Shown here in pieces: positions 1 through 16,008 of a DNA stretch of 64,000 nucleotides (position 1 is the first letter of the stretch; each line of letters starts with the position of its first letter). Made by a program: the position numbers and the translations under genes. The stretch lies in the NCBI RefSeq assembly GCF_055900595.2, contig NZ_CM148325.1; one strand, written 5' to 3'. The notes under the pieces were generated by a model. The model made no database searches. It saw nothing but the letters and a program-made list of their open reading frames with translations, and was not told the DNA's origin.

Positions 1-1271
1 GGGTATAGCCCCAGACCTACCGTCGTATTAATCGCTGCCCCCAGACTTGCACAACCATTAATGGCGTTACGGCGTGCCGGAAGGTTGAACACGTCGGCAA
101 AAATCTGCATAAACAGATCGCTGTTCGAACCGCCGCCAGTAATGATCACATGCTTTGCAAAGTGATTCATTTCATTACACATATTGTCGTAATTGTTCTT
201 CAGCGTCAGCGCCACGCTTTCCAGTATTGAACGATATATCCATGCGTAATCCATGCTGGAATCAAAGCCGATCATAATCCCGCGTTTGTACGGTTCCCAC
301 GGATTGGTCAGCCAGTCCAGCACCGTCATCAGACCATTACAGCCAGGCGGCACACAAGACGCTTTTTTGTTGAGCAAATCTTCCGGTGAAAGATCCTGTG
401 CTTTGGCATCCTGAATTAACGACTCGCCTAACATGTCGCGCAGCCAGCTCACTGTCCACATGCCTTTGCGGATACCGTAACCTTCATACAGCAAGGTTTG
501 CGGAATAGAAGACATAATCGGCCAGTACGCTACCGGATCTTTCGGCAGTACTTTGCCGTTCATCATCAACGCGATGTAAGTGCCAAGAGAAATTACCGCA
601 GTTTCATCATCCAGTAACCCGGCTCCCAGTGCTTCTACCGGTTTATCACTGGTGGTACAAACAACCGGCAGCCCAGCCGGGAAATGTGTCGCCAGCGCGG
701 CTTGTGGTGTGATATGCCCAAGAACAGTGCCCGGCATTTGCACATCAAAAAGCATCTGTCGGGGAATATTAAACTTCTCCATTACCGCGGTATCTTCGCT
801 CCATGCCCAGGTCTTATAATCCACCGGCCACTGACCAAAATAGTTGGCGATATTGTCTTTAAACTCGCCGGTTAAACGGTGTGTCAGATAACCTGAAAAA
901 GAGGTGACATATGCCACATCAGGATTGGTGTGCTCGTAGGGACGTGTTACGCGTGCATCCTGCCAGCTAATCAACGGCGCAGCTGGCGTGCCATCGGCTT
1001 TCAATAACGCACGGCAGCAACGGATAGATCCCAGACCAATGCCGACAATATCTTCTTTATTCCCGGCAAACTGGCTCATCAAATCGTGACCGGCAAAACA
1101 TAATGATGCCCATAAATCGTCGTCAGGATGTTCTGCGGTATCGGCATCTGGCGTGCGCATCGGCTGCAATAAGCCTTTGCCTTCGCATACCACATTACCT
1201 TCCAGATCGTACATCACCACTTTTGTGCTCTGACTTCCGCCATCAATCCCTATGATGTATTTTTTCGACAT
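1..1271 (-). CDS. ygcE: FGGY-family carbohydrate kinase, partial (N-terminal part; 3' end lies beyond window start)
   Basis: Minus-strand translation from ATG at 1271 reads MSKKYIIGIDGGSQSTKVVMYD..., the FGGY kinase N-terminal motif; the frame stays open to position 1. Not in the ORF track because no stop lies in the window. Confidence 0.85.
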   Translation of the reverse strand, partial: MSKKYIIGIDGGSQSTKVVMYDLEGNVVCEGKGLLQPMRTPDADTAEHPDDDLWASLCFAGHDLMSQFAGNKEDIVGIGLGSIRCCRALLKADGTPAAPLISWQDARVTRPYEHTNPDVAYVTSFSGYLTHRLTGEFKDNIANYFGQWPVDYKTWAWSEDTAVMEKFNIPRQMLFDVQMPGTVLGHITPQAALATHFPAGLPVVCTTSDKPVEALGAGLLDDETAVISLGTYIALMMNGKVLPKDPVAYWPIMSSIPQTLLYEGYGIRKGMWTVSWLRDMLGESLIQDAKAQDLSPEDLLNKKASCVPPGCNGLMTVLDWLTNPWEPYKRGIMIGFDSSMDYAWIYRSILESVALTLKNNYDNMCNEMNHFAKHVIITGGGSNSDLFMQIFADVFNLPARRNAINGCASLGAAINTTVGLGLY

Positions 1272-1297
1272 GATTTTTCTCCTGTAATTTTCTGGAC

Positions 1298-2575
1298 TTA
1301 CTTGCTGCTAGCCATTGCGGGGGCGCTATCAGCAGTACGAATTTTTTGGAACAGCAAAAAGGTAAAGACGATCACCATGCCAAGCGCCGCCATGCCCATC
1401 AGCCACATATTGCGGTAGGCTTCTGCCGCGGGCAGGGTGTCTTGCCAGTAGCCGATAATTGGGTAAACGAAGACATCCGGCAGGAATCCAATCACCGAAC
1501 AAATACCTACCGTGGTGCCCATAATGTAAGACGGTGTTCTCGCTTCGCCGGGGCAGGCCCAGTACAGCCCGCGTGAGGCGTAACAGGTGAATCCCAGAAG
1601 TAAAATCAGACCAACCCCCATCGCGACCGATTGCGGGTTAGAGTTCGTGATGAGCAGGGCAGTTAACGCCAGCAGGCCGAGTACGGAAAGGATTTGGATC
1701 ACGCGGGTAGGGGATTTCACTTTGCTGTAGGTGGTGATAATGCCACCAAGTGGGCCGCACAGTGCGCGGAAGATTTTGTTGATCACAATCCCCATGTAGC
1801 TCGCCGCCACCAGCGACATGCCGTACATTTCGGTCAGATAGTTGGTGGAGTAACTCAGAATGGCGTAGATGGTGAAGACGCCAAAAATCACCATGCTGCA
1901 GTACCATGTGGTGCTGATACGCAAAACGGCAAGGATGTCGCTAAGCTGGAATGACTGTTTTTCTTCGGTGTTGGTATTGCGCAGGTTGTTGTTATCGCTA
2001 ACAAAAAACCAGCACAGAATCCCCAACAAGATGTAAACCACACTATAGATGATAATGACCGTTTTCAGGCTGGCGCTGTCATCCGGTGCAAAGCGAGAAA
2101 AGACCCACATGGTAAACACCGCCAGCGACATTACACCGACGCCGCGCAGCCCTTCCATCCAGCCCATAATTTTCCCTTGCTCGCTATGATCGCCAAGCAA
2201 CGATGCGGCTTTAATCGACACCGACCACAGCATTAAAATCGTCGTTATCGCAAAGGCGACCTGAATACAGAGCATTACCCACAGCGGTGGATACGTTGCC
2301 ATTAACAGACCCAGCAATCCGGTAATGATCATCGCGGAAGTAATCATTTTGCGATGCGAAAATTTATCGGCAATAACGCCGCTGGGGGCATAAAGAATAA
2401 TAGCCGCAATACCAAAGGTACTCATTATTAAACCTATCTCGGTATTGCTGAATCCCATAAATTTAGCCATGGGAATTTGATAAATATAACGTAAATAAGC
2501 CAGATCAAAACTAACGCCGCCACTAAAACTAATTATCGCGAGGGTTATCCAACGGCGATATGAGTTGTGTTGCAT
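1298..2575 (-). CDS. yqcE: MFS-family transporter
   Basis: 425-aa ORF, hydrophobic multi-helix protein; position between ygcE and ygcW matches the K-12 gene order. Confidence 0.85.
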   Translation of the reverse strand: MQHNSYRRWITLAIISFSGGVSFDLAYLRYIYQIPMAKFMGFSNTEIGLIMSTFGIAAIILYAPSGVIADKFSHRKMITSAMIITGLLGLLMATYPPLWVMLCIQVAFAITTILMLWSVSIKAASLLGDHSEQGKIMGWMEGLRGVGVMSLAVFTMWVFSRFAPDDSASLKTVIIIYSVVYILLGILCWFFVSDNNNLRNTNTEEKQSFQLSDILAVLRISTTWYCSMVIFGVFTIYAILSYSTNYLTEMYGMSLVAASYMGIVINKIFRALCGPLGGIITTYSKVKSPTRVIQILSVLGLLALTALLITNSNPQSVAMGVGLILLLGFTCYASRGLYWACPGEARTPSYIMGTTVGICSVIGFLPDVFVYPIIGYWQDTLPAAEAYRNMWLMGMAALGMVIVFTFLLFQKIRTADSAPAMASSK

Positions 2576-2753
2576 ATCGTATTCCCATTTGTAATAGACA
2601 AAAAAAAGAGAAAAGTAAGCCGCCCTTTCAGGTGGATTACTTTTCTCAGGTCTCTAGTAATTGCAATAAGAAATAACATGGAAAGCAGTGGTGTTGTGTG
2701 AGAGTAGTCACGCTTCTGCTTTTTAAAATTATTTGATAATACGAATATCACAC

Positions 2754-2769
2754 TGTGATTACGATCACA
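2754..2769. promoter_or_regulatory. Putative CRP site (TGTGA-N6-TCACA) in the yqcE/ygcW divergent region
   Basis: tgtgattacgatcaca matches both CRP half-sites with 6-bp spacing; a TAAAAT -10-like hexamer lies about 22 bp downstream (2791-2796), the geometry of a class II site. Confidence 0.5.
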
Positions 2770-2822
2770 TTAGCGCTTATGCCCTTATGCTAAAAATTAT
2801 CTCCAGTTACCAGAGATAATGA

Positions 2823-2869
2823 GAAAGGTAACTTCCCTCTCGCGGGGGAAGTTACCTTTCTTTTTTTTT
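2823..2869 (+). terminator. Intrinsic-terminator-like hairpin in the ygcW leader (candidate attenuator)
   Basis: Perfect 15-bp inverted repeat gaaaggtaacttccc / gggaagttacctttc (2823-2837 and 2846-2860) followed by nine T residues, ending about 24 bp before the ygcW ATG. An upstream segment agttacc (2805-2811) could pair with ggtaact in the left arm as an alternative structure. Confidence 0.55.
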
Positions 2870-2893
2870 GCCTTACGGAAATTGGAGCTAACT

Positions 2894-3679
2894 ATGTCAA
2901 TCGAATCTCTCAATGCGTTCTCAATGGATTTTTTCTCCCTGAAAGGTAAAACCGCAATTGTTACTGGTGGGAATAGCGGTTTAGGCCAGGCATTTGCCAT
3001 GGCACTGGCAAAAGCAGGCGCAAATATCTTTATTCCTAGTTTCGTTAAAGATAATGGCGAAACAAAGGAAATGATTGAAAAACAGGGGGTTGAGGTGGGC
3101 TTCATGCAGGTGGATATCACCGCAGAAGGCGCGGCGCAGAAGATAATTGCCGCCTGTTGTGAACGTTTCGGCACCGTCGATATTCTGGTTAACAATGCCG
3201 GTATATGTAAGCTGAATAAGGTGCTGGATTTCGGTCGTGCCGACTGGGACCCGATGATTGACGTGAACCTGACCGCCGCATTCGAGTTAAGCTACGAAGC
3301 GGCAAAAATTATGATCCCGCAGAAAAGCGGTAAAATCATTAATATCTGTTCACTGTTTTCCTACTTAGGTGGTCAATGGTCTCCTGCTTATTCTGCCACT
3401 AAACATGCTCTTGCCGGATTCACCAAAGCTTATTGCGATGAACTAGGTCAATATAATATTCAGGTAAATGGTATTGCCCCTGGCTATTATGCAACAGATA
3501 TCACCCTGGCGACACGCAGTAATCCAGAAACTAATCAGCGCGTTCTTGATCATATTCCGGCAAACCGTTGGGGCGATACTCAGGATTTAATGGGCGCAGC
3601 CGTATTCCTCGCAAGTCCGGCTTCAAATTATGTTAACGGGCATTTATTAGTGGTCGATGGCGGTTATTTAGTGCGCTAA
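2894..3679 (+). CDS. ygcW: Short-chain dehydrogenase/reductase (SDR)
   Basis: TGGNSGLG Rossmann motif; start placed at the internal ATG 2894 (ggag SD 8 nt upstream, 261 aa) rather than ORF-track ATG 2819, which would translate the terminator hairpin. Confidence 0.85.
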   Translation: MSIESLNAFSMDFFSLKGKTAIVTGGNSGLGQAFAMALAKAGANIFIPSFVKDNGETKEMIEKQGVEVGFMQVDITAEGAAQKIIAACCERFGTVDILVNNAGICKLNKVLDFGRADWDPMIDVNLTAAFELSYEAAKIMIPQKSGKIINICSLFSYLGGQWSPAYSATKHALAGFTKAYCDELGQYNIQVNGIAPGYYATDITLATRSNPETNQRVLDHIPANRWGDTQDLMGAAVFLASPASNYVNGHLLVVDGGYLVR

Positions 3680-3748
3680 TCCATAACGGTGGTTTCTGTT
3701 TTCTCTTATTAATGATTATTCCATTTTTATTATCAGGAAGGAATTACT

Positions 3749-5203
3749 ATGTCTTTATCTCGCGCAGCGATTGTCGACCAGCTAAAGGAAATTGTTGGTG
3801 CAGATCGCGTAATTACCGATGAAACAGTATTAAAGAAAAACAGTATTGACCGTTTTCGCAAATTTCCGGATATTCATGGCATTTATACTTTGCCGATTCC
3901 GGCAGCGGTCGTAAAACTCGGTTCCACAGAACAAGTATCCCGTGTGCTGAATTTTATGAATGCGCACAAAATTAACGGTGTGCCGCGTACCGGTGCTTCC
4001 GCTACCGAAGGTGGACTGGAAACTGTTGTGGAAAACTCGATAGTGCTTGATGGCTCTGCAATGAATCAAATCATTAATATTGATATAGAGAATATGCAGG
4101 CGACGGCGCAATGTGGCGTTCCGCTGGAAGTGCTGGAAAACGCGTTGCGTGAAAAAGGTTACACCACGGGGCATTCTCCGCAGTCAAAACCGTTGGCGCA
4201 GATGGGGGGACTGGTGGCGACCCGTAGTATCGGGCAGTTCTCCACACTCTACGGCGCAATCGAGGATATGGTCGTTGGCCTGGAAGCAGTACTGGCTGAT
4301 GGCACCGTGACACGCATTAAAAACGTGCCACGACGCGCGGCGGGCCCGGACATTCGTCACATCATCATCGGCAACGAAGGCGCATTGTGCTATATCACTG
4401 AAGTCACTGTGAAAATCTTTAAATTCACCCCGGAAAACAACCTCTTCTACGGTTATATCCTGGAAAACATGAAAACCGGCTTCAACATCCTACGTGAAAT
4501 CATGGTGGAAGGATATCGTCCGTCGATCGCTCGTTTATATGATGCTGAAGATGGCACGCAACACTTCACCCATTTTGCCGACGGTAAATGTGTACTGATC
4601 TTTATGGCTGAAGGTAACCCTCGCATTGCGAAGGCGACGGGCGAAGGGATTGCAGAAATCGTGGCACGTTACCCGCAATGCCAGCGCGTGGACAGTAAGC
4701 TGATCGAAACCTGGTTTAACAACCTGAACTGGGGACCGGATAAAGTGGCTGCCGAACGTGTGCAGATCCTCAAAACCGGCAACATGGGCTTTACCACCGA
4801 AGTGTCCGGCTGCTGGAGTTGTATACACGAAATCTACGAAAGCGTTATTAACCGTATTCGTACCGAGTTCGCGCACGCCGACGACATCACCATGCTGGGC
4901 GGTCACTCCTCTCATAGCTATCAGAACGGCACCAACATGTACTTCGTCTACGACTACAACGTCGTTGACTGTAAGCCGGAAGAGGAAATCGACAAATACC
5001 ACAATCCGCTCAACAAAATCATCTGCGAAGAAACCATTCGCCTCGGCGGTTCGATGGTACACCATCACGGTATCGGTAAACATCGTGTTCACTGGAGCAA
5101 ACTGGAACACGGCAGCGCGTGGACATTGCTGGAAGGGCTGAAAAAACAGTTCGATCCTAACGGCATTATGAATACGGGTACTATCTATCCGATTGAAAAA
5201 TAA
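3749..5203 (+). CDS. ygcU: FAD-linked oxidase (alkyl-DHAP synthase / GlcD-like family)
   Basis: 484-aa ORF; family assignment and position in the ygc cluster are from recollection of the K-12 gene, not from a motif search. Confidence 0.8.
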   Translation: MSLSRAAIVDQLKEIVGADRVITDETVLKKNSIDRFRKFPDIHGIYTLPIPAAVVKLGSTEQVSRVLNFMNAHKINGVPRTGASATEGGLETVVENSIVLDGSAMNQIINIDIENMQATAQCGVPLEVLENALREKGYTTGHSPQSKPLAQMGGLVATRSIGQFSTLYGAIEDMVVGLEAVLADGTVTRIKNVPRRAAGPDIRHIIIGNEGALCYITEVTVKIFKFTPENNLFYGYILENMKTGFNILREIMVEGYRPSIARLYDAEDGTQHFTHFADGKCVLIFMAEGNPRIAKATGEGIAEIVARYPQCQRVDSKLIETWFNNLNWGPDKVAAERVQILKTGNMGFTTEVSGCWSCIHEIYESVINRIRTEFAHADDITMLGGHSSHSYQNGTNMYFVYDYNVVDCKPEEEIDKYHNPLNKIICEETIRLGGSMVHHHGIGKHRVHWSKLEHGSAWTLLEGLKKQFDPNGIMNTGTIYPIEK

Positions 5204-5296
5204 TGTGTCAGGCAGCGTTTCGCGATGACGGGGCGTTGTCTTTTCGGCTTCTCAACAGGGAAGCCGTTCTTATTACCGGACAATGAAGGGGTAAAG

Positions 5297-6634
5297 ATGA
5301 ACACTTCACCGGTGCGAATGGATGATTTACCGCTTAACCGTTTTCACTGTCGAATTGCTGCGCTGACTTTCGGCGCACACCTGACCGACGGTTATGTTCT
5401 CGGCGTCATTGGTTACGCCATAATTCAGCTTACACCCGCCATGCAACTGACGCCGTTTATGGCGGGAATGATCGGCGGCTCGGCGCTACTTGGCCTGTTT
5501 ATCGGCAGCCTGGTTTTGGGCTGGATCTCCGACCATATCGGGCGGCAAAAAATCTTCACCTTCAGCTTTATGCTGATTACACTCGCCTCGTTCCTGCAAT
5601 TTTTTGCCACCACGCCAGAGCATCTTATTGGACTGCGCATTTTGATCGGCATTGGGCTGGGAGGCGATTACTCAGTAGGCCACACCTTGCTGGCTGAATT
5701 TTCTCCGCGCCGCCATCGCGGTATTTTGCTGGGCGCTTTCAGCGTGGTGTGGACCGTAGGTTATGTGTTGGCAAGTCTTGCCGGACATCACTTTATTAGC
5801 GAAAGCCCCGAAGCCTGGCGATGGTTACTTGCATCGGCGGCATTTCCTGCCCTGTTGATTACGTTGTTACGTTGGGGAACGCCAGAATCGCCACGCTGGC
5901 TACTGCGCCAGGGGCGTTTTGCAGAAGCTCACGCTATCGTGCATCGCTATTTTGGTCCCCATGTTTTACTGGGCGATGAAGTGGCAACGGCGACCCATAA
6001 ACACATCAAAACCTTGTTCTCTTCGCGCTACTGGCGGCGCACGGCGTTTAACAGTGTCTTCTTTGTCTGCCTCGTGATCCCGTGGTTTGTGATTTATACC
6101 TGGCTGCCAACTATCGCCCAGACTATTGGACTGGAAGATGCGCTGACTGCCAGCCTGATGCTTAATGCGTTGTTAATTGTGGGCGCGCTGCTGGGATTAT
6201 TTCTGACGCACCTGCTGGCACATCGCAAATTTTTGCTGGGAAGTTTTTTGCTGCTGGCGGCAACGCTGGTAGTGATGGCCTGTTTGCCTTCTGGCAGTTC
6301 ATTAACGCTGCTGCTTTTTGTTCTCTTCAGCACCACCATTTCGGCAGTCAGTAATCTGGTGGGCATTTTGCCTGCGGAAAGTTTTCCTACTGACATTCGC
6401 TCGCTGGGTGTCGGTTTTGCCACTGCCATGAGTCGGTTGGGGGCGGCGGTAAGTACTGGCCTGCTGCCGTGGGTGCTGGCGCAGTGGGGAATGCAAGTCA
6501 CCTTATTGCTCCTGGCGGCAGTGTTGTTGGTTGGTTTTGTTGTGACCTGGCTATGGGCACCAGAAACCAAAGCACTCCCGCTGGTGGCGGCGGGAAATGT
6601 AGGAGGTACGAATGAACATTCTGTTAGCGTTTAA
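5297..6634 (+). CDS. ygcS: MFS-family sugar/metabolite transporter
   Basis: Hydrophobic 445-aa protein from the internal start MNTSPVRMDD; multi-helix transporter pattern. Confidence 0.8.
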   Translation: MNTSPVRMDDLPLNRFHCRIAALTFGAHLTDGYVLGVIGYAIIQLTPAMQLTPFMAGMIGGSALLGLFIGSLVLGWISDHIGRQKIFTFSFMLITLASFLQFFATTPEHLIGLRILIGIGLGGDYSVGHTLLAEFSPRRHRGILLGAFSVVWTVGYVLASLAGHHFISESPEAWRWLLASAAFPALLITLLRWGTPESPRWLLRQGRFAEAHAIVHRYFGPHVLLGDEVATATHKHIKTLFSSRYWRRTAFNSVFFVCLVIPWFVIYTWLPTIAQTIGLEDALTASLMLNALLIVGALLGLFLTHLLAHRKFLLGSFLLLAATLVVMACLPSGSSLTLLLFVLFSTTISAVSNLVGILPAESFPTDIRSLGVGFATAMSRLGAAVSTGLLPWVLAQWGMQVTLLLLAAVLLVGFVVTWLWAPETKALPLVAAGNVGGTNEHSVSV

Positions 6635-7391
6635 AGCCGAACCGGATGCCGGAATGCTGGCGGAAAAAGAGTGGCAGGCAGCGGCTCAGGGTAATAGCGG
6701 ACCGGATGTTTCGCTTCTGCGAAGTTTACTCGGTGCTGATGAACAGGCTGCCGCCGCGCTGCTGTTGGCGCAGAGAAAAAACGGTATGTCGATGTCTTTA
6801 ACCGCGTTGAGCATGGGGGATGAACGGGCGTTGCACTGGCTGCGCTATCTCATGGCTCTTGGGTTTGAGGAAGCTGTATTGCTGGAGACGGCGGCAGATA
6901 TGCGCTTTGCGCCGGAATTTGTCGCTCGCCATATTGCCGAATGGCAGCGCCAGAATCCGCTGGATCTGATCATTACTGGCTGCCAGAGCAGCGAAGGGCA
7001 GAACGGGCAAACGCCATTTTTGCTGGCGGAAATGCTGACCTGGCCCTGCTTTACCCAGGTGGAGCGTTTTACTCTCGACGCACCGTTTATCTCGCTCGAA
7101 CAGCGTACTGAACATGGATTACGCTGTTGTCGGGTTCGCTTGCCTGCGGTGATTGCCGTGCGCCAGTGTGGCGAGGTGGCCTTGCCAGTACCGGGAATGC
7201 GCCAGCGAATGGCTGCGGGGAAAGCTGAAATTATCCGCAAAACTGTTACTGCTGAATCGCCAGCGATGCAGTGCCGGCAACTGGAAAGGCCAGAGCAACG
7301 ACGCGGTGCAACGCTTCTTGATGGGCCAACGGTAGCAGAAAAAGCGCAAAAACTGTGGCGGGATTATTTGTGCCAGAGGATGCAGCCATGA
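6612..7391 (+). CDS. ygcR: Electron-transfer flavoprotein beta-subunit-like protein
   Basis: 259-aa ORF translationally overlapping the next gene; ETF-beta family assignment and cluster position from recollection of K-12. Confidence 0.85.
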   Translation: MNILLAFKAEPDAGMLAEKEWQAAAQGNSGPDVSLLRSLLGADEQAAAALLLAQRKNGMSMSLTALSMGDERALHWLRYLMALGFEEAVLLETAADMRFAPEFVARHIAEWQRQNPLDLIITGCQSSEGQNGQTPFLLAEMLTWPCFTQVERFTLDAPFISLEQRTEHGLRCCRVRLPAVIAVRQCGEVALPVPGMRQRMAAGKAEIIRKTVTAESPAMQCRQLERPEQRRGATLLDGPTVAEKAQKLWRDYLCQRMQP

Positions 7392-8248
7392 ATATCGCAA
7401 TTGTGACAATAAATCAGGACCATGCCGCAATAGCGAGCTGGCTGGCGGAGCAGGATTTCAGCGGCAGCACATTAACGCACTGGCAAATCGAGCCGCAGCC
7501 GATGGTCGCGGAACAGGTGCTGGATGCGCTGGTAGAACAGTGGCAGCGAACGCCTGCGGACGTTGTTCTCTTTCCGCCGGGAACGTTTGGCGATGAACTG
7601 GCTACCCGCCTGTCCTGGCGTTTACATGGTGCCAGTATATGCCAGGTGACTTCATTAAATATTCCAACCGGAAGCGTACGCAAATCCCACTGGGGAAATG
7701 CGCTAACGGCGACGCTGCAAACAGAAAAACGCCCGCTATGCCTTTCCCTTGCCCGCCAGGCGGGAGCAGTGAAAAATGCCACGTTGCCCTCTGGTATGCA
7801 GCAACTGAACATTGTCCCCGGCGCGCTTCCCGACTGGCTGGTTAGCACAGAGGATCTGAAAAATGTTACCCGTGACCCATTAGCTGAGGCCAGACGGGTG
7901 CTGGTGGTGGGGCAGGGCGGAGAGGCAGATAACCAGGAAATCGCTATGCTGGCAGAAAAGCTGGGAGCCGAAGTGGGCTACAGTCGGGCGCGAGTAATGA
8001 ACGGTGGCGTTGATGCCGAAAAAGTGATTGGTATTTCCGGACATCTGCTGGCACCTGAGGTGTGTATTGTTGTTGGCGCTTCCGGCGCAGCAGCGTTAAT
8101 GGCGGGCGTCCGCAATAGCAAGTTTGTGGTGGCGATTAATCATGACGCCAGCGCGGCGGTATTTTCACAGGCAGATGTTGGCGTGGTTGATGACTGGAAA
8201 GCGGTGCTGGAGGCACTGGTGACAACCATTCACGCAGATTGCCAATAA
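7388..8248 (+). CDS. ygcQ: Electron-transfer flavoprotein alpha-subunit-like protein
   Basis: 286 aa from the internal start MNIAIVTINQ; ETF-alpha family assignment from recollection; overlaps the ygcR stop. Confidence 0.85.
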   Translation: MNIAIVTINQDHAAIASWLAEQDFSGSTLTHWQIEPQPMVAEQVLDALVEQWQRTPADVVLFPPGTFGDELATRLSWRLHGASICQVTSLNIPTGSVRKSHWGNALTATLQTEKRPLCLSLARQAGAVKNATLPSGMQQLNIVPGALPDWLVSTEDLKNVTRDPLAEARRVLVVGQGGEADNQEIAMLAEKLGAEVGYSRARVMNGGVDAEKVIGISGHLLAPEVCIVVGASGAAALMAGVRNSKFVVAINHDASAAVFSQADVGVVDDWKAVLEALVTTIHADCQ

Positions 8249-8253
8249 CGTGC

Positions 8254-8360
8254 TGCCGGATGATCCTGCCTACGGTTCTGGGCTGGGGACTTGTAAGCCT
8301 GATAAGACGCGTCAAGCGTCGTATCAGGCGCTGAATGTCGGATGTGGCGTGCAGCCTACA
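8254..8360. repeat. REP/BIME-type extragenic palindromic repeats
   Basis: gcctgataagacgcgtcaagcgtcgtatcaggcg and flanking ccggatg / ctacgg motifs between convergent ygcQ and ygcP. Confidence 0.5.
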
Positions 8361-8394
8361 AATCACACAAATTCAATTCGTTACGATTATCTCG

Positions 8395-8970
8395 TCAAAG
8401 CAATTTTTTCGCTAACGTCCAGACCCCGGTATTCGTGGTAGAAAGCGCCACTACACCGGCGTTAATCGCATTACGCGCATCTTCTTCATCGCACACCAGC
8501 CCGCCAGCAACCAGCGGCTGGTGGATTTTCTCCGTTACCCAGCCCAGTACTTTAGGCATACAGCCTGGCAGAATTTCAATACAATCCGGGTTCGATTGCG
8601 CAACCTGTTTATCAATGTTGTGAAATGAAATCGAATCAACAATAAACAAGCGATGAATACAGAAAAAGCCTTCCGCTCTCGCCGCTTTTAGCATTGACGC
8701 TTTGGTACTGATAATGCCGTCCGCCTCGGTCACCAGTTTCAGAAACTGAATTACTACTTCTTTATTTGACGCGCCTTCCAGCAAATCGACATGAATAAAA
8801 GCATATTTTCCGGCGTTCTTAATCTTTTTGACGATATGACTGATGGTGCAAATATTGCCGTACAACACGGAAATAAACCGGCATTCAGAGTCGATTGCCA
8901 GTTGCAGGCTGGCATTGTCTTTAACGGCAGCAATCACCGGATTCTGGCGGAGCAGGTGTAAGAGGGGCAT
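8395..8970 (-). CDS. ygcP: GlpP-family (glycerol-3-phosphate-responsive type) transcription antiterminator
   Basis: 191-aa ORF; GlpP-family assignment from recollection of the K-12 ygcP annotation. Confidence 0.8.
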   Translation of the reverse strand: MPLLHLLRQNPVIAAVKDNASLQLAIDSECRFISVLYGNICTISHIVKKIKNAGKYAFIHVDLLEGASNKEVVIQFLKLVTEADGIISTKASMLKAARAEGFFCIHRLFIVDSISFHNIDKQVAQSNPDCIEILPGCMPKVLGWVTEKIHQPLVAGGLVCDEEDARNAINAGVVALSTTNTGVWTLAKKLL

Positions 8971-8986
8971 AAATTATCCTTATTAT

Positions 8987-9247
8987 TTATCCAAAGCGGT
9001 AGGTGATGCCGAATCCGGAAGGCGGATAGCGCCACTGTTGTAGGGTTTTTTCATCACACAGTAAACGGCAGGTGCCACACTCCAGGCAGCCGCGATAATC
9101 AACGCGTAAGTCGCCTTCCGGCGTGAGCGAAAAAAGACCAGCCGGACAAGCGTTAATCAACCGTTCTGCCGTCTGGCGCTCAACGGAGTCTGCCGGAACA
9201 ATATGTGGCGCATCAGCAGCGCGCCAGAGATTACGGGCTACAGACAT
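8987..9247 (-). CDS. ygcO: FixX-like ferredoxin-like protein
   Basis: Cys-rich small protein (CLECGTCRLLCDE); 86 aa from the internal start; overlaps the ygcN stop. Confidence 0.75.
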   Translation of the reverse strand: MSVARNLWRAADAPHIVPADSVERQTAERLINACPAGLFSLTPEGDLRVDYRGCLECGTCRLLCDEKTLQQWRYPPSGFGITYRFG

Positions 9248-10509
9248 CGAATACTCCTGACAACATCGCCCGCCAGATGCCACAGGCCATGACGACGTAA
9301 ATGACGCCAGAGCAACTGGCGCAGCGGCGGAACAGGTTTATCACCTTGATCCCATAAATCACGGGAAATATCCTGCATTAACGCAGGCCACGCCCGATAC
9401 CAGCCAGGGCGTTGCAAAAGCGCCGGAACATGCTGATAACGCTGTAGAACATCCCACAACAGGCTGCGCTCTACGTTGTAATGATAAAGCGGAAACAGAT
9501 TTTGCAGCTCGCGGTGCTGGCAGGCGCTTATCAGCGTTTGTGCCGCCGCCTGCGCGCCAGTCAGCGCCATATCCATGCCGCGCACGGAAATTCCGGTATT
9601 GACGCAACTGCGTAACGTATCGCCCACCAGCAGCCAGCCGTTACCGCCATATTGCACCGGCATACTGTGCAAGCCACCTTCTGGCACCAGATGCGCACCA
9701 TACTCCAGTGATTCCGTGTTTTTGATAAGCGGGCGCACTGCCGGATGCGTTTTAAAGCGAGCCAGCAGCTCGCTTGCCGGAACACGACTTTGCGTAAGTG
9801 AAGAGAGCGGGCAAACAATCCCTAACGAGAGCGTTTGTTGATTAGTATAAAGAAATGCGCCGCCGGGTAAGTCATCACAGATTCCGCCGCTGAACAGCAA
9901 CGCTGCGCCTTCGTTATTCTCCAGATGAAAACGTTCTTCAATAGCGGATGTTTCCAGTGAAAGAACTTCTTTGATCCCCAACGCCATCACTTCGCCAGCA
10001 GGACGAGTCACTAACCCGTGACGCTCAGCCAGGACGCTGTTGGCACCTTCTGCCAGCACCACATAACGGGCGCGGAGAATATCGTCACCACAAATAACGC
10101 CGCAAACTCTGCCGTTTTCTTCATACAGTGCATCCACCGTCGCACCAGGGATGCATTCGACACCTTCTTTTTCGGCTTCGGCAACCAGCCACGGATCGAA
10201 CCGTGCACGTAATACGCTCCAGGATTCACCGCCGGGCTGTAAGCTGGAAAACGTCGTTGCGCCATCCGGCGTTAGCAGAGAAAGACTTTCGTGAGTGATG
10301 CGTCGTTCAAGAGGCGCGGTCAGGTGAAACTGAGGGAGGAGTTCCGCGAGCGCATGGGTGTATAAACGCCCGCCGGAAAGGTTTTTACTGCCGGGAATTT
10401 CAGCGCGTTCCAGTAACAGAACGGATAAACCTGCCCGCGCGCAGCGTAAAGCACAAGCGGTGCCTGCTATACCCGCACCAATAATAATAATGTCGCAGTC
10501 GTCTTCCAT
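9238..10509 (-). CDS. ygcN: FixC-like FAD-dependent oxidoreductase (ETF-quinone oxidoreductase family)
   Basis: DIIIIGAGIAG FAD-binding motif near the N-terminus; 423 aa from the internal start MEDDCDIIIIG. Confidence 0.85.
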   Translation of the reverse strand: MEDDCDIIIIGAGIAGTACALRCARAGLSVLLLERAEIPGSKNLSGGRLYTHALAELLPQFHLTAPLERRITHESLSLLTPDGATTFSSLQPGGESWSVLRARFDPWLVAEAEKEGVECIPGATVDALYEENGRVCGVICGDDILRARYVVLAEGANSVLAERHGLVTRPAGEVMALGIKEVLSLETSAIEERFHLENNEGAALLFSGGICDDLPGGAFLYTNQQTLSLGIVCPLSSLTQSRVPASELLARFKTHPAVRPLIKNTESLEYGAHLVPEGGLHSMPVQYGGNGWLLVGDTLRSCVNTGISVRGMDMALTGAQAAAQTLISACQHRELQNLFPLYHYNVERSLLWDVLQRYQHVPALLQRPGWYRAWPALMQDISRDLWDQGDKPVPPLRQLLWRHLRRHGLWHLAGDVVRSIRCL

Positions 10510-10586
10510 GTCATGCCCCAGATATCCAGAGCGCAACACCCTAACATAGCGTTACTTAAGGGAAATTGACCGCCGACACACTCTTA

Positions 10587-10952
10587 TCATTCGCCGCGAT
10601 AGATACAACCTGCGGTGCAGGTTTCTTTTACCATCACCGCACTTAACAGCGGCACAACGGGTTTAACCTGATCCCAAATCCATTTTGCTAAAACTTCGCT
10701 GGTTGGGTTTTCCAGACCTGGAATATCATTGAGATAATGGTGATCGAGGCGCTCATAAGTTGGCTTAAACGCTGCTTTCAGTTCAGCGAAATCGATAATC
10801 CAGCCCGTATGCGGATCGACTTCCCCGGTAATTTCCAGTCGCACCATAAAGGAATGCCCGTGCAGGCGACCACATTTATGTCCTTCCGGGACGTGTGGTA
10901 AGCGGTGAGCGGCTTCGAAGGTGAAATCTTTAAATAACGTGGTGGACATCAT
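10587..10952 (-). CDS. queD: 6-carboxy-5,6,7,8-tetrahydropterin synthase (queuosine biosynthesis)
   Basis: 121 aa from [33 protein letters not shown], the QueD/PTPS motif; the ORF-track start lies 28 codons upstream. Confidence 0.9.
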
Positions 10953-13073: not shown

Positions 13074-14785
13074 TGAACGAAAAACATCCAGGGCCTTTAG
13101 TGGTCGAAGGAAAACTGACAGACGCGGAGCGCATGAAGCTTGAGAGCAACTACCTGCGCGGGACCATTGCGGAAGATTTAAACGACGGTCTGACCGGCGG
13201 CTTTAAGGGCGACAACTTCCTGCTGATCCGTTTCCACGGTATGTATCAGCAGGATGACCGCGATATCCGCGCGGAACGTGCTGAACAGAAGCTGGAACCG
13301 CGTCATGCGATGCTGCTGCGCTGCCGTCTGCCGGGTGGGGTGATCACCACTAAACAGTGGCAGGCAATTGATAAATTCGCCGGTGAAAACACCATTTATG
13401 GCAGCATTCGCCTGACCAACCGCCAGACGTTCCAGTTCCACGGCATTCTGAAAAAGAACGTCAAACCGGTGCACCAGATGCTGCATTCGGTCGGTCTTGA
13501 TGCGCTGGCGACCGCCAACGACATGAACCGTAACGTGTTGTGCACCTCGAACCCGTACGAGTCGCAACTGCACGCAGAAGCGTATGAGTGGGCGAAGAAA
13601 ATCTCTGAACATCTGCTGCCGCGTACCCGCGCCTACGCGGAGATCTGGCTCGATCAGGAGAAAGTCGCCACCACCGATGAAGAACCGATCCTCGGTCAGA
13701 CCTACCTGCCGCGTAAATTCAAAACCACGGTAGTGATCCCACCGCAGAACGATATCGATCTGCACGCCAACGACATGAACTTTGTGGCGATCGCGGAAAA
13801 CGGCAAGCTGGTGGGCTTCAACCTGCTGGTGGGCGGTGGGCTTTCTATCGAACACGGCAACAAGAAAACCTACGCCCGCACGGCGAGCGAGTTTGGCTAT
13901 CTGCCACTGGAGCATACGCTGGCGGTGGCGGAAGCGGTCGTTACCACTCAGCGTGACTGGGGTAATCGTACTGACCGTAAAAACGCCAAAACCAAATACA
14001 CGCTGGAGCGCGTGGGTGTTGAGACGTTTAAAGCAGAAGTGGAACGTCGCGCGGGGATCAAATTTGAGCCGATCCGTCCTTATGAATTTACCGGACGCGG
14101 CGATCGTATCGGCTGGGTAAAAGGGATCGACGACAAATGGCACCTGACGCTGTTTATCGAAAATGGCCGAATTCTTGATTATCCGGGGCGTCCGCTGAAA
14201 ACCGGCCTGCTGGAGATCGCAAAGATCCACAGAGGTGATTTCCGCATTACGGCGAACCAGAATCTGATCATCGCTGGTGTACCGGAAAGCGAGAAAGCGA
14301 AGATTGAGAAGATCGCCAAAGAGAGCGGATTGATGAATGCCGTCACGCCGCAGCGCGAAAACTCAATGGCCTGCGTGTCATTCCCGACTTGCCCGTTGGC
14401 GATGGCGGAAGCGGAGCGTTTCCTGCCGTCGTTTATCGATAACATCGATAATTTAATGGCGAAACATGGTGTCAGCGATGAGCACATCGTGATGCGTGTA
14501 ACAGGCTGCCCGAACGGTTGTGGTCGCGCGATGCTGGCGGAAGTTGGCCTGGTGGGTAAAGCGCCTGGGCGCTACAACCTGCATCTTGGTGGCAACCGCA
14601 TTGGGACACGTATCCCACGGATGCATAAAGAAAACATCACCGAGCCGGAAATCCTGGCGACGCTTGATGAACTGATAGGGCGCTGGGTGAAAGAACGTGA
14701 AGCGGGTGAAGGCTTCGGCGACTTTACGGTGCGTGCGGGCATCATTCGCCCGGTGCTCGATCCGGCGCGCGATTTGTGGGATTAA
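13073..14785 (+). CDS. cysI: Sulfite reductase hemoprotein beta subunit
   Basis: 570 aa; start overlaps the cysJ stop. Confidence 0.95.
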
Positions 14786-15648: not shown

Positions 15649-15855
15649 GCGAGCAGCATTCCGGCATTTAAACGTGAATATAGCAAGGGAAATCAACAGT
15701 TATAGAATGGCGTCGGGTGCTTGAGGCTGTCTGGCGTTGAGCATTCGCGAGGTTCCAGATGGACAAAAGCCCCAGGCGATATTTCTATCAACCTGAGGCT
15801 CGCGTTCGAACGTAGCAATTCGGATGTTAGTCTCTTCTTTGCAGGGAGGCAAGAC

Positions 15856-16008
15856 ATGCTGACAAAATATGCCCTTGTGGCAATCATCGTACTGTGTTGT
15901 ACAGTACTGGGATTCACGCTGATGGTAGGCGACTCGTTGTGTGAGTTGAGTATCAGAGAACGTGGTATGGAGTTTAAGGCAGTTCTCGCTTACGAATCGA
16001 AGAAGTAG
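15856..16008 (+). CDS. hokX: Hok/Gef-family type I toxin (50 aa, small membrane peptide)
   Basis: [50 protein letters not shown]: Hok-like hydrophobic helix, conserved Cys and AYES tail; AGGGAGG SD 6 nt upstream; stable 3' hairpin acgcggggg...ccccgcgt after the stop. Symbol is from recollection of a sokX/hokX locus at this position in K-12. Confidence 0.7.

Follow-up and report, generated by a model that had tools for sequence, protein, structure and literature searches.

The window analysed here, 64,000 nucleotides of E. coli DNA, bears the ygc cluster of about 10 genes in the order ygcE-yqcE (minus strand), ygcW-ygcU-ygcS-ygcR-ygcQ (plus strand), and ygcP-ygcO-ygcN (minus strand). A spacer of 318 bp separates the start codon of yqcE (2575) from that of ygcW (2894), the two genes being divergent. 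In the literature, the ygc genes were found in regulon lists only; neither a substrate nor a regulator was found there. The question raised by this locus is how transcription out of the spacer is controlled in both directions, and whether YgcP, the product of the sole regulator-like gene in the cluster, takes part in it. The initial annotation had considered the ygcW side, and had described a CRP site followed by a leader with alternative terminator and antiterminator structures as a candidate target of the GlpP-like YgcP. This interpretation is supported in its essentials. Three points change: the small hairpin at the beginning of the leader has to be left out, the element has a twin, and the CRP site was already known. 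In our reading, the ygc leaders are conserved switch RNAs, activated by CRP and off by default, which are most likely opened by YgcP. We assign this reading a probability of roughly 70%. The coordinates of the features are collected in Table 1, and both leaders lie inside the spacer.

Table 1. Regulatory features of the yqcE-ygcW spacer and the candidate regulator gene, in window coordinates. Promoter elements, start sites, and antiterminator function are predictions.
Feature	Position	Strand	Description
CRP site 1	2754..2769		TGTGATTACGATCACA; centre 2761.5, at -41.5 from the predicted ygcW start; class II geometry
CRP site 2	2697..2712		TGTGAGAGTAGTCACG; 9/10 match; centre 2704.5, at -41.5 from the predicted yqcE start (minus strand)
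ygcW extended -10	2788..2796	+	TGcTAAAAA; predicted start ~2803
yqcE extended -10	2670..2678	-	TGtTATTTC; predicted start ~2663
ygcW leader RNA	2803..2872	+	complete match to covariance model R1, 84.8 bits, E = 2.7e-14
ygcW antiterminator hairpin	2805..2833	+	arms AGTTACC 2805-2811 and GGTAACT 2827-2833; loop AGAGATAATGAGAAA 2812-2826
ygcW leader intrinsic terminator	2821..2869	+	stem 2821-2839:2844-2862; loop TCGC; U-rich tail 2857-2869
yqcE leader RNA	2598..2664	-	paralogue of the ygcW leader; R1 80.0 bits, E = 2.4e-13; pairwise alignment
yqcE antiterminator hairpin	2635..2662	-	AATTACT 2662-2656; loop AGAGACCTGAGAAA 2655-2642; AGTAAT(C) 2641-2635
yqcE leader intrinsic terminator	2600..2647	-	GAGAAAAGTAA...TTACTTTTCTC, then T8
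ygcP	8395..8970	-	GlpP family (G3P_antiterm), proposed trans-acting antiterminator; PF04309 E = 6e-62, model positions 1-173 of 173

On the ygcW side, a run of nine T residues (2861-2869) follows the hairpin 2821-2862, and 24 nt separate this run from the ATG. The hairpin, the T run, and the distance to the start codon had been described correctly, but the stem is longer than the 15 bp given for it. A terminator scan assigned 19 pairs to this element, 8 of them G-C, along with a loop of 4 nt and a T-rich tail, and found 6 terminator-like sites in 700 nt, compared with 0.7 expected from shuffled sequences. The fold of 2790-2900 reached -42.4 kcal/mol (z = -5.75), a value equalled by none of 200 shuffles.

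Published 3' ends were available from the Term-seq study of Adams et al. 2021 on MG1655 grown in LB to an OD of 0.4 (PMC7815308, supplementary file 3). The 3' end on the ygcW side, 2900311(-), lies 38 nt upstream of ygcW and has an average of 40,640 reads, a Rho score of 0.50, and an intrinsic terminator score of 15.8 (PMC7815308). The 3' end on the yqcE side, 2900556(+), lies 36 nt upstream of yqcE with an average of 1,557 reads, a Rho score of 0.61, and an intrinsic terminator score of 11.4 (PMC7815308). No regulatory element is noted for either of them in the Term-seq table (PMC7815308). Mapped through the K-12 sequence, the two ends correspond to window positions 2856 and 2611, respectively. 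Both fall in the 3' arm of the hairpin, just before the U-rich tails UUUCU9 (ygcW) and CUCU8 (yqcE). Rather than within the long U run, they fall 4-5 nt ahead of it, on the final G-C-rich stretch of the stem; we assume that this offset results from termination followed by 3' trimming to the stable stem. Both leaders terminate Rho-independently in vivo in LB. The ygcW terminator, which had been proposed from its sequence, is real: its helix covaries (see below), and an abundant, bicyclomycin-insensitive 3' end of MG1655 maps inside the leader hairpin (PMC7815308). The refuting check by Term-seq that the initial annotation had set came out in favour of termination.

The leader upstream of yqcE is a twin of the ygcW leader. 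They align for about 100 nt, starting in the -10 region and ending with the T run, and have the loop sequence in common. Between their antiterminators, a G-C pair is replaced by A-U and a C-G pair by U-A, both compensatory. No third copy of the motif, for example before ygcNOP, was found in an R1 scan of the 64-kb window, and E. coli genomes contain a median of 2 places with the motif, all without annotation. The twin leader, the second CRP site, and the prior knowledge of CRP site 1 had been overlooked in the initial annotation. A search of the whole window against Rfam 15 gave no relevant family at the gathering score, and a permissive scan of 2300-3200 with E up to 10 gave none of relevance; the best matches below threshold were unrelated sRNA or miRNA models covering the hairpin only. 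The attenuator is new in that it is absent from Rfam and from the RefSeq annotation, and no paper describing it was found.

The switch proposed for the ygcW leader depends on the pairing of AGTTACC with GGTAACT, which forms part of the left arm of the terminator. This alternative pairing is present, and it carries compensatory changes within the family. Covariation was counted on a MAFFT alignment of 69 distinct leaders that had not been fitted to any structure. The terminator helix was paired in 92.3% of the cells and showed compensatory changes at 8 of 17 pairs. For the antiterminator helix (columns 3-9:29-35), the paired fraction was likewise 92.3%, and 3 of its 7 pairs had changed on both sides: 25 sequences carry A-U in place of G-C, 20 carry C-G in place of U-A, and 1 carries G-C in place of A-U. 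Inclusion of the copies from Vibrio, Clostridia, and Sporomusa gave 93.5% paired cells and compensatory changes at 4 of 7 pairs. When the register of the helix was slid, 14-54% of the cells were paired over both alignments, and 14-52% in that of the 69 leaders; none of 500 shuffles reached the observed values. The outermost antiterminator pair was broken in 20-27 sequences, and G-U-type changes occurred at pair 6-32 in 7-15 sequences.

Folding energies were calculated for both leaders. With only the 5' half of the terminator included in the nascent RNA, the minimum free energy structure was the antiterminator hairpin, at -6.7 kcal/mol for ygcW and at a very weak -1.4 kcal/mol for yqcE. The complete leaders folded into the terminator, with -34.2 kcal/mol (ygcW) and -22.3 kcal/mol (yqcE). 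Because the full fold is far more stable than the antiterminator, termination should be the default outcome, and a stabilizing factor would be needed for read-through. When the antiterminator was imposed and its loop kept from pairing, nothing remained of the terminator but a short upper hairpin, at least 14 nt away from the U run.

The initial annotation had included a further small hairpin, formed by TTATCTC (2797-2803) and GAGATAA (2813-2819). The complementarity is there, but it is not conserved, with 49% of the cells paired in ygcW-type and 26% in yqcE-type leaders compared with 92-93% for the terminator and antiterminator helices. From the predicted start sites, the RNA would begin 1-2 nt before the antiterminator arm, so that the 5' arm of the small hairpin would be mostly outside the transcript; the hairpin probably straddles the start. 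An H-type pseudoknot built on this hairpin was dropped for both reasons. A leader peptide was also rejected, as the sole ATG (2819) is in frame with ygcW and has neither a stop codon nor a Shine-Dalgarno sequence, and it is absent from yqcE-type leaders.

Upstream of the ygcW leader, the CRP site TGTGATTACGATCACA has two perfect half-sites, as had been stated. The -10-like element had been read as TAAAAT; the actual hexamer is TAAAAA (2791-2796), and TG at 2788-2789 makes it an extended -10. In orthologues of both leader types, an extended -10 of the form TGnTA is kept at a distance of 13-14 nt upstream of the antiterminator arm. At nearly all orthologous loci, in about 40 species, a CRP site matching 9-10 of 10 consensus positions is centred 42.5-43.5 nt upstream of the same arm. 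Initiation 7 nt past the -10 would put the two CRP sites of the window at -41.5, which is a class II position. In MG1655 coordinates, the starts predicted in this way fall near 2900364 (minus strand) and 2900504 (plus strand). On the basis of these predicted start sites, both promoters would be class II CRP-dependent promoters, with a geometry kept in about 40 species. The supplementary files of the Cappable-seq and Rend-seq papers yielded no mapped start sites. Other promoter hexamers were put forward by Shimada et al. on the basis of SELEX data, TTGACA-16-TGTGAT in the case of ygcW.

CRP site 1 had been both predicted and detected before. In 2007 it was among the high-ranking PhyloScan predictions (PMC1794230), it corresponds to a CRP ChIP peak in ETEC (PMC4287617), and in vitro footprinting gave an estimated Kd of ~1.7 nM in a Footprint-seq preprint from 2026 (PMC12871828). 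yqcE-ygcE is listed as CRP-activated in published regulon data. For site 2, the published CRP-binding studies searched contained no record of CRP binding.

The distribution of the leaders was determined on 46 YgcP-anchored loci from one-genome-per-species contigs, using an nhmmer profile built from the two E. coli leaders and later covariance model R1. The profile search found both leaders in about 40 species of Enterobacterales, ranging from Escherichia, Citrobacter, Klebsiella, and Enterobacter through Serratia, Rahnella, Budvicia, and others. In each of these loci, one copy precedes the YgcW-like SDR gene and one the YqcE-like MFS gene, without exception. A single copy adjoins the YgcP-like gene of the Firmicute Thalassobacillus. 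Three extra YgcP-like loci, obtained by exact protein look-up from Vibrio hannami, Anaeromicrobium sediminis (Clostridia), and Sporomusa (Negativicutes), contain two copies each; the operons behind these leaders encode an SDR, an FAD-linked oxidase, ETF beta/alpha, an FGGY kinase, and a transporter, and a PF04309 gene adjoins. The leaders are placed in sense orientation, 24-30 nt from the start codons of the downstream operons. In 889 kb of YgcP-anchored DNA, all matches on the sense strand were these leaders. Strong matches were missing only from four truncated contigs and from the most distant Firmicute loci, Lachnoclostridium (L046) and Faecalibacterium (L047), where only weak matches occurred, just downstream of glpP-like genes.

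Within E. coli, conservation is higher in the leader than in the coding DNA on its flanks. Of 5063 genomes, 4185 match the 80 nt of the leader with an identity of 99% or more, and the surrounding 701 nt reach that level in only 11 genomes. Compared with K-12, the 200-nt segment containing the ygcW leader is 99.5% identical, and neighbouring coding segments are 90-97% identical. The between-strain identity of YgcW itself seemed low in a quick blastx search; at the DNA level, identity to K-12 is 90-99% per 200-nt segment.

The assignment of YgcP as GlpP-like was borne out, as PF04309 is matched over its full length. Its link to the leaders is supported in that the motif accompanies YgcP-like genes across two phyla. 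Co-occurrence alone cannot separate YgcP from the co-inherited catabolic genes. YgcP is 28% identical to GlpP of the B. subtilis type, and its closest relatives in the PDB, 3KTS and 1VKF, are named glycerol uptake operon antiterminator. In B. subtilis, GlpP together with glycerol-3-phosphate binds the antiterminator of the glpD leader, and the leaders of glpD, glpFK, and glpTQ all contain 5'-UTR terminators (PMC7430163, PMC9604022, PMC10573289). Leaders for comparison were taken from a B. subtilis-type glpP-glpFK-glpD contig of a metagenome. The glpD and glpFK leaders of this contig have a promoter whose -10 is either extended or normal, a pair of GAGA elements (UGAGA-CGAG-GAGAGACC and GGAGA-ACUCG-GAGACC), a short upstream arm, and a terminator, the upstream arm pairing with the 5' arm of the terminator as GGUC:GACC and UUGUG:CACAG. 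R1 matched the glpD leader weakly (14.6 bits, E about 0.1). The antiterminator-only model R2 gave no match in L051, L046, and L047 and missed both the glpD and the glpFK leader. Because of the weak R1 match and the blank result with R2, RNA homology between the ygc and the B. subtilis glp leaders cannot be claimed. Judged by eye, the layout and the GAGA repeats suggest a resemblance of the ygc leaders to GlpP targets.

These observations can be combined into the following mechanism. Two divergent class II promoters in the yqcE-ygcW spacer would be activated by CRP-cAMP, each giving a leader of about 65 nt. The first ~30 nt would fold as a weak antiterminator at the very 5' end, with a 6-7-bp stem AGUUACY:RGUAACU and a purine-rich loop AGAGA-N3-4-GAGAAA; in the ygcW leader, AGAGA lies at 2812-2816 and GAGA at 2821-2824. 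Its 3' arm and part of the loop would double as the base of the stronger intrinsic terminator. Without YgcP, the 3' arm of the terminator would displace the antiterminator, transcription would stop 25-30 nt before the start codon, and short leaders would accumulate. We infer that YgcP, when bound to its ligand, acts on the nascent hairpin and/or the GAGA repeats and thereby blocks the base of the terminator, which would permit read-through into ygcW-U-S-R-Q and yqcE-ygcE. As the inducer, a phosphorylated product of YgcE, the FGGY kinase, is probable, a speculation by analogy with GlpK, glycerol-3-phosphate, and GlpP.

Several other explanations have to be weighed against antitermination by YgcP. 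The conserved arms could be read as DNA, because AGTTACC-N15-GGTAACT forms an inverted repeat that covers roughly +3 to +31 in each of the two predicted promoters and might be the operator of a dimeric transcription factor just downstream of the start. However, the half-sites differ within one genome (AGTTACC and AATTACT) and each copy is still self-complementary, the G-U-type changes at pair 6-32 are the signature of RNA pairing, and the cluster has no gene for a DNA-binding regulator. Since the paralogues of one genome differ by compensatory changes and wobble pairs are tolerated, the repeat is better explained by pairing in RNA than by an operator, which we consider highly improbable. A riboswitch would place the decision in the RNA itself: a metabolite would be bound directly by the small hairpin at the 5' end, whose purine loop is conserved, and YgcP would be uninvolved. 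Very small aptamers exist, the loop sequence is highly conserved, and the element is located at the extreme 5' end and coupled directly to the terminator. Yet the putative aptamer would comprise about 30 nt with a single 7-bp helix, Rfam offers no match even at E up to 10, the motif always adjoins the gene of a protein family known to antiterminate, and the precedent in B. subtilis is protein-dependent. A riboswitch is therefore regarded as very unlikely.

The terminated leaders might also be the functional products, i.e. stable 5'-UTR-derived sRNAs that act in trans, released by a terminator that is essentially constitutive. The abundance of the ygcW leader RNA in LB, comparable to that of known riboswitch leaders in the same table, is in line with this. 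We judge it quite unlikely, as the element always stands in sense before the same catabolic operons at the short distance from the start codons given above, it is difficult to see why an alternative helix should covary if there is no switch, and no RIL-seq or Hfq record was found in the supplementary files searched. An sRNA function could co-exist with antitermination by YgcP. Another trans-acting factor, either an RNA-binding protein or an sRNA, could recognize the GAGA-rich loop, with YgcP having, for example, an enzymatic role in keeping with a TIM-barrel-like fold. The contact between YgcP and the RNA is something we infer, and R2 provides no link to known GlpP targets, both of which leave room for such a factor. 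It is nonetheless unlikely, considering that the leader occurs next to a PF04309 gene in Enterobacterales, Vibrio, Bacilli, Clostridia, and Negativicutes, that this neighbourhood persists despite rearranged gene orders and swapped transporters, and that the cluster contains no further regulator-like gene. Antitermination by YgcP is the reading that we prefer.

Beyond E. coli, we see about an even chance that the YgcP subfamily and the leader constitute a widespread, previously undescribed protein-RNA switch of Gammaproteobacteria and several classes of Firmicutes, with the 5'-terminal hairpin and its two GAGA repeats as the recognition element. If this holds, it would be the first GlpP-type antitermination outside the Firmicutes and the first definition at sequence level of a recognition target of the GlpP family, and it would provide a reporter handle for the substrate of the ygc module (SDR, FAD-oxidase, ETF, FGGY kinase). 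The ygc circuit is the first candidate for GlpP-type antitermination in Proteobacteria. Protein-dependent antitermination of catabolic operons is little documented in E. coli K-12; bgl is the textbook case and, to our knowledge, the only well-known catabolic system of this kind in E. coli. The ygc locus adds a concrete circuit, made up of two predicted class II CRP promoters, a pair of attenuator leaders, and a single candidate RNA-binding regulator; covariation and Term-seq 3' ends that were published but not interpreted speak for it. It supplies a well-conserved RNA target for proteins of a family with poorly defined RNA recognition, and fusions of the leaders to reporters might serve as an inducer screen for an orphan pathway conserved across phyla.

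Among known systems, the proposed circuit can be compared most directly with GlpP and the glp leaders of B. subtilis. In both cases the regulator belongs to PF04309, and several operons of one catabolic regulon carry intrinsic terminators in their 5'-UTRs. The 5' arm of the terminator has a short complementary segment upstream of it, and two GAGA elements lie just 5' of this arm or overlap it. An FGGY kinase, GlpK there and YgcE here, could produce the phosphorylated inducer, and catabolite control is superimposed by CcpA and CRP, respectively. In contrast to GlpP, YgcP represents a subfamily of its own, which is associated with SDR, FAD-oxidase, ETF, and FGGY genes and not with glp genes. The ygc antiterminator would be located at the very 5' end of the transcript, as judged from the predicted start, the host is a proteobacterium, and the inducer is probably not glycerol-3-phosphate; the ygc circuit is proposed here from sequence and public data.

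In the RAT systems of BglG, SacY, and LicT, a weak hairpin overlapping the 5' arm of the terminator is stabilized by the protein, and termination is the default (PMC7430163). In the ygc leaders too, a weak hairpin overlaps the 5' arm of a terminator, and termination would be the default. However, the ygc cluster encodes no CAT-PRD protein, the fold and family of the regulator are unrelated, and the hairpin sequence differs. HutP of the B. subtilis hut operon is a ligand-activated oligomer that binds NAG triplets in the leader and blocks the terminator (PMC2425495; PMC7430163). Although HutP belongs to another protein family, and the repeats differ in sequence, number, and spacing, the paired GAGA elements of the ygc leaders suggest a comparable recognition of repeats.

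The yqcE leader is a paralogue of the ygcW leader and lies outside the region described in the initial annotation. A second CRP-like site was located at the predicted yqcE promoter, and it was kept in the orthologous loci. In the CRP literature examined, only the site at 2754-2769 appears, with no mention of this second one. The features are collected in the table below.

Features located in the window
Feature	Position	Strand	Remarks
yqcE leader, paralogue of the ygcW leader	2598-2664	-	antiterminator, terminator and T8 run
Second CRP-like site (TGTGAGAGTAGTCACG)	2697-2712		predicted yqcE promoter, position -41.5
286-aa ORF extending ygcW	2819-3679	+	starts at an ATG (2819) within the antiterminator loop, in frame with ygcW
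sok antitoxin RNA (RF01794)	15715-15871	+	Rfam, 103 bits

Published Term-seq 3' ends map to window position 2856 on the plus strand (MG1655 2900311) and to 2611 on the minus strand (MG1655 2900556). Both ends fall 4-5 nt short of the long U runs, within the lower, A-U rich part of their respective stems, an offset that was assumed to reflect trimming.

In the ygcW leader, the start codon of the extended ORF has no counterpart in yqcE-type leaders and is not accompanied by a Shine-Dalgarno sequence; the extension is probably meaningless. In the minimum free energy structure of the long leader, CUCCAGUU near the 5' end (2797-2808) pairs with AAUUGGAG (2880-2891), which spans the ygcW Shine-Dalgarno sequence. 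Inspection by eye indicated that this complementarity is only partly retained in Citrobacter.

Over 1200-10600, identity between the strain's ygc cluster and that of MG1655 (L053) was only ~95%, falling to 88-92% in some 200-nt windows, e.g. at 7200-7800 (ygcR/ygcQ) and 3000-3400 (ygcW), and the 200-nt stretch holding the ygcW leader was 99.5% identical. The cluster appears to represent a divergent allele or lineage. Elsewhere, the sok RNA was the sole Rfam match above the gathering score in the whole window, which implies a hok/sok-type locus at that position.

The clusters of Vibrio (L048), Anaeromicrobium (L049) and Sporomusa (L050) retain the SDR, FAD-oxidase, ETF and FGGY kinase and carry BCCT-family transporters, where those of Enterobacterales have MFS transporters; this swap may be a clue to the ygc substrate. 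In Limnobaculum eriocheiris (L032), the yqcE-type leader (13879-13950) retains the terminator and GAGAAAAGTAAC, with an A-rich stretch in place of the antiterminator 5' arm and AGAGA. No copy of the ygcW-type leader was found in this locus, which may be degenerate or rearranged.

In the metagenomic contig carrying B. subtilis-type glp genes (L051), the glpD (4365-4385) and glpFK (1862-1880) leaders have the motif GUUAAUA in common. It precedes the first GAGA by 9-10 nt, close to the predicted 5' end, and recalls the GUUAC in the antiterminator arm of the ygc leaders. The motif may belong to a shared recognition element, or the resemblance may be coincidental.
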